Origin: a virus
Taxonomy: Duplodnaviria; Caudoviricetes
IMG/VR virus record: IMGVR_UViG_3300028833_000074
Span: 64,001 to 128,000 of that record
Strand: one strand, 5' to 3'
Length of the DNA stretch: 64,000 bases
The notes below the pieces were generated by a model. It ran no database searches. It worked only from the letters and a program-made list of their open reading frames with translations, and was not told where the DNA came from. Below are positions 3,001-29,051 of the stretch, piece after piece. Position 1 is the stretch's first letter; each line of letters opens with the position of its first letter. The position numbers and the translations under genes are program-made.

Positions 3001-5215
3001 AGCAATTACTATATGTTATGAATGTAATTGGGTGTCAAATGGTTGGAATAATTATTGTCCACATTGTTTATCAAAGCATATTGAAAAAACCTTCGCTGAC
3101 TACAACAAAACATACTGCAACAAATGTCATACTTTACATGATAATTATTATTCAACATGTCCATCTTGTTTCTCAAAAGATGTTACATATCTACAAAATA
3201 ATGAAAAAATATACCAAATTTTTGATATTAATACACAAAATATTGAACCTATTATCATCAAAAGTAATATTAATAAAATTAATGTTTGCAATATAAAAAT
3301 ACCATTAAATAAACATACGAATGAACTTACTCAATTGAAAACATTATCTTTAATATTGACAACCACAAATCATAATGATGGAAAATATTATTATTGTCCG
3401 GATTGTGAAAGTGGTGGATTAGGTAATTATGATAAATGCCCTTATTGTAATAGTGTATCTATTGAAAATAATATCATTAATAATATTAATTTCGACATTT
3501 ATGCAACTGTCAATAATCAAACATCATTGCTTCAATCATATAATCAATTTACAGATACAAATAAGATATTTATTGATATATTAGATTTAGCAAAAACCAA
3601 TGCTAAAGAATATTTCACGCTATCTATATATGCAGAGAATCCATTTTATCAACAAAATAATAATGAGTTACATGCATTAAATATCGCCGAAGAATATCAA
3701 CAAGAAATACTAACAATTAATAATATAAATATTAGTATTGACAATATTGGTTTAGAATCCAAATATAAAAATGAACATGAATGGGAAAACTTAAATTCAT
3801 TATATGGACAACAACATCAAGGAGTAATATATCAGACAAATGAATATAATAATGATTATATTAATTTTTCTAACTTCAATATTGACGAAAAAAATTTAAA
3901 ACATTTATATTTGCATATTAATGGTATCAATAAAACGTTATCACATATACATGCAGATATAAAAATATCCGATAGCAAAGGACACACTTCATCAATAACA
4001 ATATACAACGTAGATAATGATTTATTTAATATACAAGAAGACATCTTGCCTTATATTAAAGATAAAAACGTTTCAATTCAAGTTAGATTTATTAATGCAA
4101 ATATTAATAAATATATCATTATTACCGATTGTTATTTAATCGCTGAAAAAGACAATAGTCACATTATTACACCATCATTATTGGAAGAAAATACCATTAT
4201 TAACCATTATGACAACAACTCTTATTTAATTTCAACCGAAAACCTCTGGCATCTTAACGATACCAAACCTTACTATTTGAGTGGTAGACAACTCCATAAT
4301 GGTTTATTATGCTATTTAGATTTTGGTAAATTAAATAGTGATGAATATATTAGATTATACGATATACAACTTGTAATTGAATATAAAAATAAATATGGTG
4401 TATTTATCACCGACAGTATTGATATATCTGACAATCCATTCCCAAAACAATTGCTCTCTGGAGATATTGTCAAAAATCAAGGTGAAAATTGGGGTGCAAT
4501 TAAGGTATCTGAAATAAGTTTAAATAATTTAGAATACGAAGTTAATATTAATACAGATAATGAAGATTTATTAAATTCATTGCCACTATTTAAAGCAATA
4601 TCACAATCTTTTATTGCCGATACAAGTAATATATATAAGATTGACTTTAAATATGATGGTCGAAGTGGTTATCCAAGTGAATATATCTATGTAGCGTTAT
4701 ACGATGACAATGGTAATACACCAGACAATTTAATCGCTCGTAAAAAAATCCAAACACCAAATGTTAGTAGCATTTTCAGTTTTGATTTTTACATTGATAA
4801 AATTAATGTTGGTGAAAAATATTGGATAATAATTGAAGATGACAACGCTGACAGATATAATCACCATAATTTTAAATATAATTTAAATAGCGATGTCGGT
4901 AATCTTATTATAACTGAAGAAAACAACTTCAGTACCAAATATGAAAATATGGCTTTAAGTTTTGCAATTGAAAGCAGTTATAATATTTCTGAATATCATG
5001 ATTTACCAGTTACATGGGAATTAGATACAGATATTGACAGCGATTTTAAGTTATATAATGCATTATATCGTTTTAATACAACATCATTGAGCAATGTATT
5101 TATTAAAGATTTATTAATCCGAAGTGGATATACAGAAACTGATGACGATTTTATTGATGAATCTTCAATAATAGATGTTGATGCTGATAATTTTGAAGAA
5201 GATGATAACTTATGA
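1..5215 (+). CDS. Very large virion structural protein, probably baseplate/tail (5'-truncated), with DUF11-like beta domains and several CxxC zinc ribbons
   Basis: The frame is open from position 2 through the ATG at 203, giving >1730 aa rich in Asn/Ile. 'NRVKPFGT' resembles baseplate-wedge KPxG motifs, and there are repeated CxxC-x(n)-CPxC units. It lies upstream of tail-fibre-like genes. Confidence 0.6.
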   Translation, partial: PTLTAIDSNTHPSFNENSRILTFPLLEANSSKYILEICYKAQKKGIYDFIIKTLDDKKSTEDDQYANMYQHKLLVNIDSSVDVRTTVTNNHPYLDEIFDFKIYVKNYFKNQNEFIFNIKDIGQYENAHEQNHFIIENVECQDGVFYPSDNQNQLGIWKITNIKAGDIFELILSLRPTDTKIHVIETEFIDTQLNRQKYRNEIDVLEPNKKIDFNVYHAVNHSDEDIDCQNCDKLTIICDDDFINLNDDIYYIFEITNNNKNPINYINLYARLPSSFLNNGIKCYNKNYPPSINSNNLVSFRINSIDGCQTKKFCIKVTPSQQGTFLSNFMLSTHNAHVLHRQLKLTVDSHYNARTTEHEITIYNFEKTNRYFRREMDNQGNLFKFFNKGDISKRTLDIEKHNASKVETYKGSTLKDIIQQIKDNSKYVEPELLRIGNNHLATKSYEMYPNGFINRFGLLNSEVFHYAGQLPTTSNLVDYAMRWDVDTWDTKVWTGNDYQNGVFDLTIDYAKIPTNFNILELDNPIGNLQSLVNRVKPFGTKAICYYSNSIKLTLKMELDLLSTTIDNNFLFDIELDKLGIITWYNRHDNSIYTTYDIHYFESEFDDIKVKTLNNMGKIDVNDDLETNMTYSIDIFKDKMSQQYIHECYNIVQNLLSSNIAITKEKNNLNLPLQKINRNSYINKLYDGDIYEFYFNGDIENEQIAGIYIENDRDIIACLRQRIDPFINHFTLQENDNTISSTNISNPYNFSIQVQCCTLQNNTKYRILHFWISTNDRKYQYLGYYFVTNYNDIVLYVNNSAGLPITYTQTSTKIDIEEEYDLTKDTPITFSIDDSIKKINETHNDIHLQSSALKWDNINNLNASNKYAIVYNDSNVDKECKASSLQTPKIMLRYDNINIDDTDEIQNIYVNLKANANYDFINNTTINIQKDGDYYLPNNNTSHKTYYPNNITNVNQTFISALNIQQPNITICGNCLRTSLGYYDECPYCNSNKVSHSDEKEAITICYECNWVSNGWNNYCPHCLSKHIEKTFADYNKTYCNKCHTLHDNYYSTCPSCFSKDVTYLQNNEKIYQIFDINTQNIEPIIIKSNINKINVCNIKIPLNKHTNELTQLKTLSLILTTTNHNDGKYYYCPDCESGGLGNYDKCPYCNSVSIENNIINNINFDIYATVNNQTSLLQSYNQFTDTNKIFIDILDLAKTNAKEYFTLSIYAENPFYQQNNNELHALNIAEEYQQEILTINNINISIDNIGLESKYKNEHEWENLNSLYGQQHQGVIYQTNEYNNDYINFSNFNIDEKNLKHLYLHINGINKTLSHIHADIKISDSKGHTSSITIYNVDNDLFNIQEDILPYIKDKNVSIQVRFINANINKYIIITDCYLIAEKDNSHIITPSLLEENTIINHYDNNSYLISTENLWHLNDTKPYYLSGRQLHNGLLCYLDFGKLNSDEYIRLYDIQLVIEYKNKYGVFITDSIDISDNPFPKQLLSGDIVKNQGENWGAIKVSEISLNNLEYEVNINTDNEDLLNSLPLFKAISQSFIADTSNIYKIDFKYDGRSGYPSEYIYVALYDDNGNTPDNLIARKKIQTPNVSSIFSFDFYIDKINVGEKYWIIIEDDNADRYNHHNFKYNLNSDVGNLIITEENNFSTKYENMALSFAIESSYNISEYHDLPVTWELDTDIDSDFKLYNALYRFNTTSLSNVFIKDLLIRSGYTETDDDFIDESSIIDVDADNFEEDDNL

Positions 5216-11793: not shown

Positions 11794-12000
11794 TTACCAA
11801 TCTTTTAATGCTAATTTAACATCTTGGGCTTGGACAGTTTTTCTACCAGCGTGTTTTGCGTAAGTAGTAGCCTTTTGAGATACAGAGATAACATAATCTT
11901 CTGCAGCTTGACCCAAAATGTCAATTGCGTCTGTGCTTACTCTTTCTGCACCTACACCTTTAAGTAATCTTGCAGTTGGTGCTTTTGGATATTCACTCAT
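11794..12000 (-). CDS. Archaeal histone (HMfA/HMfB family), 68 aa
   Basis: MSEYPKAPTARLLKGVGAERVS...AKHAGRKTVQAQDVKLA matches HMf histone signatures; GGAGG RBS before ATG 12000. Confidence 0.95.
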   Translation of the reverse strand: MSEYPKAPTARLLKGVGAERVSTDAIDILGQAAEDYVISVSQKATTYAKHAGRKTVQAQDVKLALKDW

Positions 12001-24344: not shown

Positions 24345-24545
24345 TTAAAATTTGGCTATATCTTTAATCCCAAATAAAATATCTGGTTCCGGAAAATCAA
24401 TACAAGTAATTTCATTATTGATATCTCGATGAACTACAATGCCATATTTAGCAGTTTCAACTGTAACCGAATTTTTACTTGGGATTTTATATATAGACCA
24501 TATATCATTTGTTTGATTATATATAATATCGTACTTTTGCATCAT
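24345..24545 (-). CDS. Small hypothetical protein (DUF2283-like pattern)
   Basis: 66 aa 'YN...DIWSIY...IVVHRD.NNEITCIDF'; operon-coupled. Confidence 0.45.
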   Translation of the reverse strand: MMQKYDIIYNQTNDIWSIYKIPSKNSVTVETAKYGIVVHRDINNEITCIDFPEPDILFGIKDIAKF

Positions 24546-25438
24546 TTTTTATTCCCTTTAGCATTTGCTTTTGGGAATATTAAATCATACACTTTATCAT
24601 ATTGTAAATCAATTGTTTCTTCTTTATTATTTGCGCTCATAAATACTTGTTTTTTACCAACAGAGAAGATATTAGACCTATCTTTTCTAATAGTTGCAAC
24701 ATAATCTTCTACATTAACATCTTCTACACTTGGTATTTTTTCGATTGTTAATCTCATAGAACATTCATCTATAAGTCTTTGTTTAACAGAAGATAAATCC
24801 TTACCTTGCTCTACAAGTTCTGGTATAAAATCAGAATGAGTTACATAAATGACCGGAGTATCAAGACTCATGAATGCTGAAGTACATTCTCTAAAAAATT
24901 TATTTCTAATTTTCCATACACTTAATTGTGCGCCTTGGTCAGCATCAAGATTCTTTTCTAATCTCATTCTTGCTTCAGCATATTCAAGTAAAAATGAAAC
25001 ACCATCAAGAATAACACCCTTAACATGAATATCTTGTTCTAATGCTTGTCTAACTGCTTCGGCTGCAGATGTAACATTATTAACAATAGTTTCTTCATCC
25101 TTAACAGTTGCACCTTTCTCATTTTCGGTAAAAGCATCTGGATTATATATTCTAATATTACCAGATTGATATTCATCTAAATAAAATGATTGAATGATTT
25201 CTTCACCGCTATTATCAACACTAATATAAACAATAATTTCATCATCCTTTAAATCATAAGTTAATAAATAAAGTGCTAAAGAAGTTTTACCAGTACCATT
25301 CTCACCACTTAATAATATTTTCTTATTAATTTTATCATTTATCTTTTGTTTTTTTGCATCAAAAATTTGTCCAAAAATCTCATCCTTCATTGATTCTTTT
25401 GGTTTACGTGTTTTCTCTCCCATATTACGAATTCCCAT
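24542..25438 (-). CDS. AAA_24/Sak4-like RecA-fold ATPase
   Basis: Walker A 'GENGTGKT', Walker B 'VILDG', 'YVTH'. Confidence 0.8.
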   Translation of the reverse strand: MGIRNMGEKTRKPKESMKDEIFGQIFDAKKQKINDKINKKILLSGENGTGKTSLALYLLTYDLKDDEIIVYISVDNSGEEIIQSFYLDEYQSGNIRIYNPDAFTENEKGATVKDEETIVNNVTSAAEAVRQALEQDIHVKGVILDGVSFLLEYAEARMRLEKNLDADQGAQLSVWKIRNKFFRECTSAFMSLDTPVIYVTHSDFIPELVEQGKDLSSVKQRLIDECSMRLTIEKIPSVEDVNVEDYVATIRKDRSNIFSVGKKQVFMSANNKEETIDLQYDKVYDLIFPKANAKGNKK

Positions 25439-27736: not shown

Positions 27737-27772
27737 ATAAAAAAAAGCCCACCTAAAAAGGTGGGCCAAAAA
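27737..27772. terminator. GC hairpin between convergent genes
   Basis: gcccacct-aaaa-aggtgggc with a flanking A-run (U-tract on -). Confidence 0.7.
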
Positions 27773-27787
27773 GGAATAACAAATGAG

Positions 27788-28003
27788 TTAACATGATTTA
27801 ATAACTTGTAAACTTGTTTTAAATTGATAAGTATCAATTAATTGTCTATTAAAAATTTTATATTTATGAACAATATATAAATTATCTTTTTTTGTAATAA
27901 TATAAGCAATATTATTATCCTTATAATATATTAATTCATATTTATCAATAGTATCAAAATCATCTTTTTTTAAACTACGATTAAAAACTATCATTGTACA
28001 CAC
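27788..28003 (-). CDS. Hypothetical protein
   Basis: 71-aa ORF downstream of the tRNA. Confidence 0.4.
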   Translation of the reverse strand: MCTMIVFNRSLKKDDFDTIDKYELIYYKDNNIAYIITKKDNLYIVHKYKIFNRQLIDTYQFKTSLQVIKSC

Positions 28004-28013
28004 ATCTTATCAA

Positions 28014-28086
28014 AGCTACATGAGAGACTTGAACTCTCGACATCCAGATTACAAGTCTGGCGGTCTACCAACTAACCTAATGTAGC
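28014..28086 (-). tRNA. tRNA-Thr(UGU)
   Basis: GCTACAT acceptor stem, anticodon arm CCAGA-CTTGTAA-TCTGG, T-arm GAGAG-TTCAAGT-CTCTC; no encoded CCA. Confidence 0.92.
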
Positions 28087-28100
28087 ATAGGTGGTGTTAA

Positions 28101-28270
28101 TTTTACTTCTTAACCCAAGAAGACTTTTTATGACTCTTATATACGAATGTGGGGGTAAAAATATATAAGTCTTGTCAGTAGGACGATATTATGAGTCTTT
28201 TTACTTCTCTACTTCAGAAGACTTTTAACGACTCTTATAGTAAAACATAAAAAAACTATAAGTCTTGTCA
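28101..28270. repeat. Two ~75-nt structured direct-repeat units with variable loops
   Basis: ttttacttct-n7-agaagactttt..gactcttata-[variable]-tataagtcttgtca at 28101-28177 and 28199-28270. Confidence 0.75.
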
Positions 28271-28403
28271 AGGAGTTAAAAAATTACAATTTGCAATGAA
28301 GTGAAAATTTATAAGCCCCGATTACATAATCCCAAAAAATTAAATCATGATAACTTATTATTATATCCTTTCGGATAACGAGGCTTATTATATCATGATT
28401 AAG

Positions 28404-28475
28404 TCAGTATAAGTGGATTTGCACCACTATCTCCCACCACGTGTATTGGGTGTTTTACTATTAAACTATATACTG
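28404..28475 (-). pseudogene. tRNA-like element with an abnormal anticodon arm
   Basis: Acceptor CAGTATA/TATACTG, D-arm GTTT/AAAC and T-arm AGTGG-TGCAAAT-CCACT pair fully. The anticodon arm CCCA-ATACACGTGG-TGGG is non-canonical. Confidence 0.65.
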
Positions 28476-28476
28476 A

Positions 28477-28567
28477 TTATGTCGAATGGGGAAAGGAAAT
28501 GATTTAATGATTAGTACACCTAACAATTGTGCATAGTAAACGAAGGTAAAAAACCCATTCGACATAA
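28477..28567 (-). ncRNA. Candidate small RNA closed by a perfect 14-bp stem
   Basis: ttatgtcgaatggg (28477-28490) / cccattcgacataa (28554-28567), with a pyrimidine-rich interior on the - strand. Confidence 0.5.
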
Positions 28568-28608
28568 CGACAGTTGAATTCGAGAAATGGAGAAATAACA
28601 TGCTCCAA

Positions 28609-28681
28609 AGCCACAGACCGGAATCGAACCGGCACTCTACGACTTACGAAGTCGTCGCATTGCCAATTATGCTACTGTGGC
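28609..28681 (-). tRNA. tRNA-Thr(CGU)
   Basis: GCCACAG acceptor, anticodon arm ACGAC-TTCGTAA-GTCGT, T-arm GCCGG-TTCGATT-CCGGT. Confidence 0.92.
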
Positions 28682-28691
28682 GGACAAAGGC

Positions 28692-29051
28692 TTAAACACC
28701 TTCATCCCCAATCATGTCATCAAAGGCATGTTCATCATTACCAGCAATATATCTTGTTCCAGCAGTAATTATACCATCAGTAATTTGTGGAGCAGTATAC
28801 GCTGTAATAGCGGCCACATACCAATTACTGAATAATTCTGGTTGAGAATAGGATAAAGCAATTGCTGCTAATACACCTACAATAATAGTTGTAATTGAAC
28901 CAAGATTAAAACTAATCTCTTTTCCATTACGATAAAATGTAGGCAATACAAAACTACCTTTCATAATGACCAGTCTAAAGATTATTGCAATAATTATTGC
29001 AACATAAATAGTACTATTCAAAATAGTTCCTCCTACGTATGCTATATACAT
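28692..29051 (-). CDS. Small multi-pass membrane protein (holin-like candidate)
   Basis: Two to three hydrophobic segments and an acidic C-terminus. Confidence 0.45.
   Translation of the reverse strand: MYIAYVGGTILNSTIYVAIIIAIIFRLVIMKGSFVLPTFYRNGKEISFNLGSITTIIVGVLAAIALSYSQPELFSNWYVAAITAYTAPQITDGIITAGTRYIAGNDEHAFDDMIGDEGV

Follow-up and report, generated by a model that had tools for sequence, protein, structure and literature searches.

What do the 522 nucleotides that separate two threonine tRNA genes of a large virus actually encode, and might they act on translation? The question is posed by a spacer in the window, by which we mean the whole 64-kb stretch of DNA analysed here, itself part of an IMG/VR virus record of 152,284 bp. 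A first-pass annotation had described the spacer as packed with hairpins between two minus-strand tRNA-Thr genes, and had read it as an array of antisense small RNAs whose exposed loops shut off translation initiation on selected messages. The descriptive half of that reading holds up well: ARAGORN and Rfam both call the two tRNA genes on the minus strand, the spacer folds better than its dinucleotide shuffles on either strand (z = -2.7 for minus, -3.1 for plus), and the suggested check for covariation in related viruses turned up compensatory base changes in every named hairpin. The functional half fares less well, as will be seen. On balance, and judging from comparative sequence evidence, we incline to an answer in which the spacer holds a set of genuine non-coding RNAs, a cassette read from the tRNA (minus) strand, punctuated by tRNAs and carrying both a look-alike of the 16S rRNA tail, in a unit that we call u5, and an independent RNA, u3. 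That the minus strand specifies structured RNAs is very likely, and that these would be processed through tRNA punctuation is reasonably likely.

Read 5' to 3' on the minus strand, the region begins with a gene of 119 amino acids (aa) at 28692-29051, which has 175 relatives and is our synteny anchor, and continues with a canonical tRNA-Thr(CGU) at 28609-28681 (Rfam tRNA score 67.1 bits). Immediately after it comes a trailer hairpin, hp1 (28588-28607, UGGAG/CUCCA), evident from predicted folds and alignments, then u5 (28477-28567), an RNA with a perfect closing stem of 13-14 bp that appears in the DNA as inverted repeat I2 and pairs in four sequences, and then a tRNA-shaped element, the pseudo-tRNA (28404-28475). 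The u3 pseudoknot RNA (28311-28400) is followed by two paralogous two-hairpin modules, namely u2 (28196-28281), delimited by direct repeats D1 and D2 and with compensatory changes relative to the related loci L002 and L012, and u1 (28098-28188), which has a CCCCC loop, was likewise delimited by repeats and displays a compensatory change relative to L002. The second canonical tRNA, tRNA-Thr(UGU), lies at 28014-28086 (Rfam tRNA 70.6 bits), and beyond it are a 68-aa gene (27788-27994, MIVFNR...), which comes after the array in all relatives (alignment A5), and a terminator-like hairpin with a T8 run (27746-27767), so placed that the whole cassette sits between a minus-strand gene and the probable end of its transcription unit. 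Two of these features, the third match to the tRNA model and the paralogy of u1 and u2, go beyond what had been noticed earlier.

In which host would such RNAs be made? We think that the host is archaeal and probably Methanobrevibacter, because the virus encodes a histone of the HMf type and the tRNA of a relative bears an intron. The histone gene (window 11806-11988, minus strand; PF00808, 53.5 bits) finds its best genome matches in Methanobrevibacter and other Methanobacteriaceae, its product being at most 59% identical to Methanobacteriaceae histones and 57% identical to the top Methanobrevibacter match. The intron, 31 nt long and of archaeal type, interrupts the anticodon loop of a tRNA-Thr(UGU) in L004 (3382-3488), a gene missed by plain ARAGORN and found both by Rfam (57.5 bits) and by ARAGORN in intron mode. 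One NCBI copy of the 119-aa neighbour gene is labelled 'Bacilli bacterium', which we take as a binning error, and a Pfam search for pseudomurein peptidases is uninformative, having returned no match even in control genomes.

The relatives place the spacer in a wider context. Many of the 175 relatives of the 119-aa gene lie on contigs of 130-158 kb; 14 syntenic loci were obtained through this gene and more through a DNA pattern for u3, and in all of them the gene order is constant, with the upstream gene, an RNA slot and a gene of 68-70 aa. In the 14 loci the slot holds between one and ten tRNAs of changing identity, and in L017, fetched by the u3 pattern, it holds none, so the RNA slot is a hypervariable array of 0-10 tRNAs in a family of viruses of about 150 kb. 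Other routes into the databases gave little: the flanking genes could be assigned to no Pfam or PHROG family, BLAST of the spacer region against a phage database gave no match, and in IMG/VR neither exact patterns for u1/u2 and u3 nor look-ups of single proteins found anything; a motif pattern returned two loci there and a relaxed pattern one more (a pattern match in L117 was rejected as a chance match). Against Rfam 15, the whole spacer and ten relatives matched no family above threshold except tRNA, and within the 152-kb viral genome none of the spacer units has a further copy.

What is shared within the slot emerges from nine distant relatives, where the last tRNA is followed by a UUG...CAA hairpin, a single strand, a strong hairpin (hp2), a U-rich stretch and then u3. 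The stems of the UUG...CAA trailer hairpin covary while differing in sequence, hp2 is unrelated in sequence between lineages, and the single strand between these two hairpins carries an invariant UCCCUCCAA. The hp1, linker and u5 of the window occupy the same positions as the hp1, UCCCUCCAA strand and hp2 of the relatives, and u5 may therefore be read as an expanded hp2. As far as the alignments tell, the family scaffold is tRNA(s), hp1, an unpaired pyrimidine tract, hp2, the u3 pseudoknot and the 68-70-aa gene, with the pseudo-tRNA, the duplicated u1/u2 module and tRNA-Thr(UGU) read as later insertions; three relatives (L009, L010 and L017) are without the pyrimidine-tract module.

The most constant member of this scaffold is u3, which BLAST finds in 14 of 14 loci and the DNA pattern in further ones, and which is present in every related locus of sufficient length, giving 17 distinct sequences for alignment. 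Its structure comprises a 10-bp helix H1 (28391-28400 with 28343-28352, minus strand), in which seven of the ten pairs are compensatory, a 5-bp hairpin H3 (28364-28377), in which four of five are, and an 8-bp helix H2 (28379-28388 with 28311-28320) that crosses H1, with 100% of cells paired and a single swap from A-U to U-A. Taken together, 99.2% of cells are paired and 12 of 23 pairs are compensatory across the 17 sequences, and sliding the 3' partners by one to three columns reduces pairing to 30-48%. RNAalifold, blind to the proposed structure, recovers H1 and H3 with compensatory change in 11 of 15 pairs; H2 is near-invariant, and the pseudoknot is argued for mainly by perfect complementarity together with its one compensatory pair. 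The junction strands CUAUAAUAAGCCUCGUU and AAUAAUAAGUUA and the linker GGG are invariant or nearly so, and all of this is conserved though the neighbouring protein is only about 65-75% identical. At two positions of u3, U-G pairs occur in 9-10 of the 17 sequences, and since the opposite strand would have A-C mismatches in their place, the RNA should be read from the tRNA (minus) strand; frequent U-G pairs bear out the earlier suggestion that the hairpins are RNA elements of that strand.

A covariance model of u3 finds a single copy in the viral genome (99.7 bits) and none in two sets of Methanobacteriaceae genomes (0 of 5 and 0 of 151); a motif scan of genome contigs gave 0 matches, and u3 from the window and ten relatives resembles no family in Rfam 15. 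By these comparisons u3 is an uncatalogued RNA family, present family-wide in these viruses. Compact at about 90 nt, strongly covarying and rich in invariant junction nucleotides, it bears the kind of signature that led earlier to riboswitches, ribozymes and protein-binding RNAs, and we think that it is probably an independent folded RNA, serving as a protein- or ligand-binding regulatory element or as a stabilising one, with any single named role having at best a rather modest chance of being the right one. One further observation is that AUUAAAUCAU in u5 (28499-28508, minus strand) can base-pair with AUGAUUUAAU, which lies at the 3' edge of u3 H1 (28339-28348, minus strand); the match spans 10 bp in the window and, with G-U pairs included, 8-10 bp in L002 and L012. 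This could be a contact between u5 and u3, or a chance match in A/T-rich sequence.

The remaining units are of narrower distribution. For u5, u1 and u2 the evidence comes from just two to four related sequences, within which they are lineage-specific elements with compensatory changes, as far as these alignments reach. The closing stem of u5 is 100% paired with three compensatory pairs in four sequences, and among five copies of the u1/u2 module the upper stem of the first hairpin exhibits swaps from G-C to A-U, U-A to C-G and A-U to G-C, and the second hairpin a swap from C-G to U-A. An alternative pairing in u1/u2, AAGACUU with AAGUCUU, was rejected, being broken in the u2 copy of L002. This locus, the closest relative (86% identity in the neighbouring protein), has hp1, u5, u3, u2 and u1, with a tRNA-Met between u3 and u2 and no pseudo-tRNA; its u1 differs from that of the window by an A-U to G-C compensatory change and by a 39-nt insertion in the loop.

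The pseudo-tRNA is found in the window virus only, being absent from L002, L011 and L012, and among the tRNAs of relatives that we compared none is a clear source of it. It scores 50.4 bits against the Rfam tRNA model RF00005 (gathering score 29), with a 4-bp anticodon stem, a 10-nt anticodon loop, a D loop (AAUAGUA) without GG and a T loop of UGCAAAU, and it fails the canonical decoding features, namely a 5-bp stem and 7-nt loop with U33, G18G19 and T54-Psi55-C56. ARAGORN calls it solely at a lowered threshold, as Cys(ACA); a 'tRNA-Leu' with a 70-nt intron, proposed by the intron mode of the same program, is a chimera of u5 and the pseudo-tRNA and was discarded. Another tRNA-like RNA may lie at 3615-3722 of L009, in a 250-nt gap between tRNA-Cys and tRNA-Gln, where a sub-threshold YrlA-like match (35 bits) overlaps a partial tRNA match (32 bits). 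For the units of the window, a Y RNA identity was rejected, there being neither a TROVE gene nor a YrlA match in the viral genome, and inspection by eye found no defining boxes for C/D-box, H/ACA, k-turn, BHB or CRISPR-repeat readings.

Do any of these RNAs imitate the ribosome? The best candidate is AAUCAUUUCCUUU (28492-28504, minus strand), the sole stretch inside u5 that is invariant among four relatives, its flanks having diverged, and one that is predicted to be unpaired (P(unpaired) 0.86-0.92). It equals the Methanobrevibacter 16S tail GAUCACCUCCUU, whose 3' sequence was read in L115, except that two C residues have become U, and all 11 of 11 positions can pair with AAGGAGGUGAU, including two G-U pairs. 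It binds start regions better than shuffles do, with z between -1.8 and -3.9 for sites taken from a rumen Methanobrevibacter genome (186 sites in about 287 kb) and from the virus (131 sites), values to be read in the light of the fact that the start regions were chosen by their Shine-Dalgarno (SD) match, so that any pyrimidine-rich probe is favoured. A sliding scan, which scored preference for host start regions over gene interiors against 220 random 25-mers of the viral genome, puts the tract in the top 1%. By our measure its preference for start regions is at least as strong as that of the real 16S tail. At -15 kcal/mol or better it would pair with about 10 of the 131 viral start regions, with no single outstanding target. 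It should be added that the u5 tract alone is not statistically rare, because 79 11-mers that pair fully with the SD consensus occur in the 304 kb of both strands, or about 0.14 expected per 522 nt. What the sequences and predicted folds give us is thus a tract that is conserved, predicted to be unpaired and complementary to the SD/start region; that it would act as an anti-SD element is possible, though we would not bet on it.

Regulators of this general kind are familiar from bacteria, for example RsaE/RoxS of Firmicutes, which use unpaired pyrimidine-rich motifs complementary to G-rich SD regions (PMC6158497, PMC8216469). The u5 tract and the UCCCUCCAA tract of the relatives are like them in silico. 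They differ in not being homologous to RsaE/RoxS, in being viral, tRNA-linked and from an archaeal host, and in that the u5 tract copies the 16S tail (AUCAYYUCCUU) where RsaE/RoxS use a UCCC loop; the targets of u5 are, moreover, purely predicted.

How much further can the idea be carried? The original proposal was that each of the units is a small antisense RNA, with an exposed loop that would occlude the ribosome-binding site (RBS) of host or viral mRNAs, and in that complete form we consider it improbable. It is favoured by three minus-strand patches (28608-28585, 28517-28480 and 28202-28171) that fall in the top 1-3% of 25-mers for start-region preference, hp1 by itself reaching the top 2-3%, and by the fact that L002 retains tracts of the UCCU and CACC types in the linker that follows u2 and in the tail that follows u1. 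Tested against shuffles, three of eight segments (the 3'-side tract of u5, the u2-to-u1 linker and hp1) prefer start regions, whereas the other five (the u1 C-run loop, the u2 loop, the u3-to-u2 linker, the 5' side of u5 and the CACCACCU tail) do no better. The RBS-like strings that had been pointed out on the plus strand are present, but strict SD 5-mers are not enriched (2 against 1.8 expected per 522-nt window); the loose pattern of a purine cluster, 3-11 nt and ATG is weakly enriched, with 8 instances against 2.0 +/- 2.2, in the top 2.4% of windows, and this too speaks for the proposal. The other four RBS-like segments that had been listed are unremarkable. Against it also stand u3, the sole universally conserved unit, which has no start-region preference in the sliding 25-mer scan, the 39-nt insertion tolerated in the u1 loop of L002, and a search of about 330 kb of Methanobrevibacter/Methanobacteriaceae DNA that gave no extended match to any unit. 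Of the anti-RBS display, then, one conserved and predicted-unpaired anti-SD-like tract in u5 survives, and u3, the u1 C-run loop and the u2 loop drop out. At the opposite extreme, the spacer could be decaying tRNA genes and neutral filler in a tRNA island of fast turnover, as might be thought from the speed at which array content changes between relatives and from the one crippled tRNA that it contains. Like the tRNA pseudogenes and tRNA-like RNAs of viral tRNA islands, 28404-28475 scores as tRNA without having decoding features; unlike such islands, only one unit in five is of this kind, since u1, u2, u3 and u5 have no match to the tRNA covariance model at E up to 10. Decay is contradicted by covariation, the helices of the other units being maintained by compensatory change, and by the conservation of u3 beside so diverged a protein, and we consider it extremely unlikely. 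Scarcely more credible, and still very unlikely, is the notion that the conserved blocks work at the level of DNA, as promoter/TATA elements or as sites of replication or recombination, or that the plus strand encodes micro-peptides. Invariant A/T blocks of the TATAAT and ATAATAATA types do occur in u3, the stems of u1 are TATA-like, and short plus-strand ORFs with RBS-like leaders are present; yet the frequent U-G pairs argue for RNA of one strand, sigma-70-like sites do not exceed the level in shuffles, none of the units recurs elsewhere in the genome, and a 19-aa plus-strand ORF over u2 differs from L002 by seven non-synonymous and two synonymous changes, from which we conclude that it is not coding.

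For u3 itself, two more specific identities deserve discussion. One is a cis-acting leader of the 68-70-aa gene, which would serve as a translational operator or as a protective structure at the 5' end, the small protein itself perhaps binding to it. This is suggested by a constant spacing in six lineages (L003, L008, L009, L010, L015 and L017), where about 19-24 nt lie between the end of u3 and the start codon and A/U-rich sequence follows u3, and by the invariable co-occurrence of u3 and the gene. A precedent exists in the operator of T4 gene 32 mRNA, a pseudoknot and then A/U-rich sequence upstream of the start codon (PMC3014915), which the arrangement in several relatives resembles; in the window, however, u3 and the gene are about 300 nt apart, with a tRNA between them, and no binding protein is known. 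Indeed, tRNAs, u1/u2 or an extra ORF intervene in three lineages (window/L002, L006/L007 and L013/L014) with u3 still conserved, which argues that u3 acts independently of the gene. The SD lies outside every u3 helix, and the 68-aa protein has no recognisable RNA-binding fold: its confident AlphaFold2 model (pLDDT 92.8) consists of four beta strands and a C-terminal helix, and it has no Pfam match and no PDB match at E <=0.001. (Below significance, the model weakly resembles some small beta proteins, AcrF1 and LSm among them.) The leader is an unlikely reading in our judgement, and a self-cleaving ribozyme that processes the tRNA array, in the manner of the HDV-like theta ribozymes of gut phages, is a very improbable one. 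Here the attraction is that u3 is, like the theta ribozymes, a pseudoknotted RNA in a viral tRNA array, that theta ribozymes adjoin phage tRNAs (PMC10879173), that the order of helix strands (H1 5', H2 5', hairpin, H1 3', H2 3') is similar to that of the crossed P1/P2 in HDV-like ribozymes, and that the junction nucleotides are strongly conserved. But in those ribozymes the first position of J4/2 is occupied by the catalytic cytosine (PMC10879173), and in u3, 16 of the 17 sequences have U and the remaining one has A at the column preceding the H2 3' strand, with no conserved C in the linker; u3 has one crossing helix pair, with long helices, rather than a nested double pseudoknot, and a conserved 11-nt strand separates its hairpin from the H1 3' strand. 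Nor does it abut a tRNA 3' end, the nearest tRNA being 16-100 nt away and L017 having u3 alone between two genes with no tRNA at all, and it matches none of the HDV, twister, pistol, hatchet or hammerhead models.

Returning to the reading that we prefer, a cassette of tRNA-punctuated RNAs, how might it work? Transcription would run on from the upstream gene and end at the 27746-27767 terminator; RNase P and tRNase Z, the established enzymes of tRNA-end processing, would cut at the tRNA borders and leave stable small RNAs. The u5 (or hp1-hp2) module would present its 16S-tail look-alike, which could pair with SD/start regions and so modulate translation initiation, with u3 as a separate folded RNA beside this anti-SD module. 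A single polycistronic transcript is complicated by five U5-U7 runs on the minus strand of the cassette, as such runs are archaeal termination signals and could stop the polymerase inside it. The most ambitious version, in which a family of methanogen viruses encodes two new functional RNAs in its tRNA array, the first a 16S-tail mimic that is released by host enzymes and competes for SD/start regions and the second, u3, a virus-specific pseudoknot class (riboswitch-like, ribozyme or protein scaffold), is rather unlikely to be right as a whole. If it were true, translation initiation would be reprogrammed during infection by such a mimic, and, should experiments agree, the association of viral tRNA arrays with a look-alike of the 16S tail might prove to be a general viral route to translation initiation. 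Methanobrevibacter are the main methane producers of rumen and gut; to our knowledge, very few regulatory RNAs have been described from archaeal viruses, and we know of no RNA family catalogued for the viruses of Methanobrevibacter.

Are there functional relatives elsewhere? Phage T4 makes RNAC and RNAD, small stable RNAs from its tRNA region whose role is unknown (PMC3014915), and the cassette resembles them in comprising structured RNAs encoded in a viral tRNA gene region. There is no relation in sequence or structure, T4 is a bacterial phage where the host here is archaeal, and for the present RNAs the comparison documents conservation as well as covariation over a family of viruses. By analogy, RNAC/RNAD and RsaE/RoxS are the nearest functional counterparts, and neither is a relative. 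Virus-encoded structured RNAs in tRNA arrays are thus already known, and what is new is the u3 family.

Two further genes may be recorded here. Among the relatives, L008 carries between tRNA-Trp and tRNA-Cys a 205-aa gene (3515-4132) with a weak match to NUMOD3, of the homing-endonuclease type, and L009 has the same array without it. In the window, 24542-25438 (minus strand) encodes a 298-aa P-loop ATPase that is KaiC/Sak4-like (Pfam PF06745, 1e-07) and also matches PHROG 124, a Sak4-like ssDNA annealing protein.
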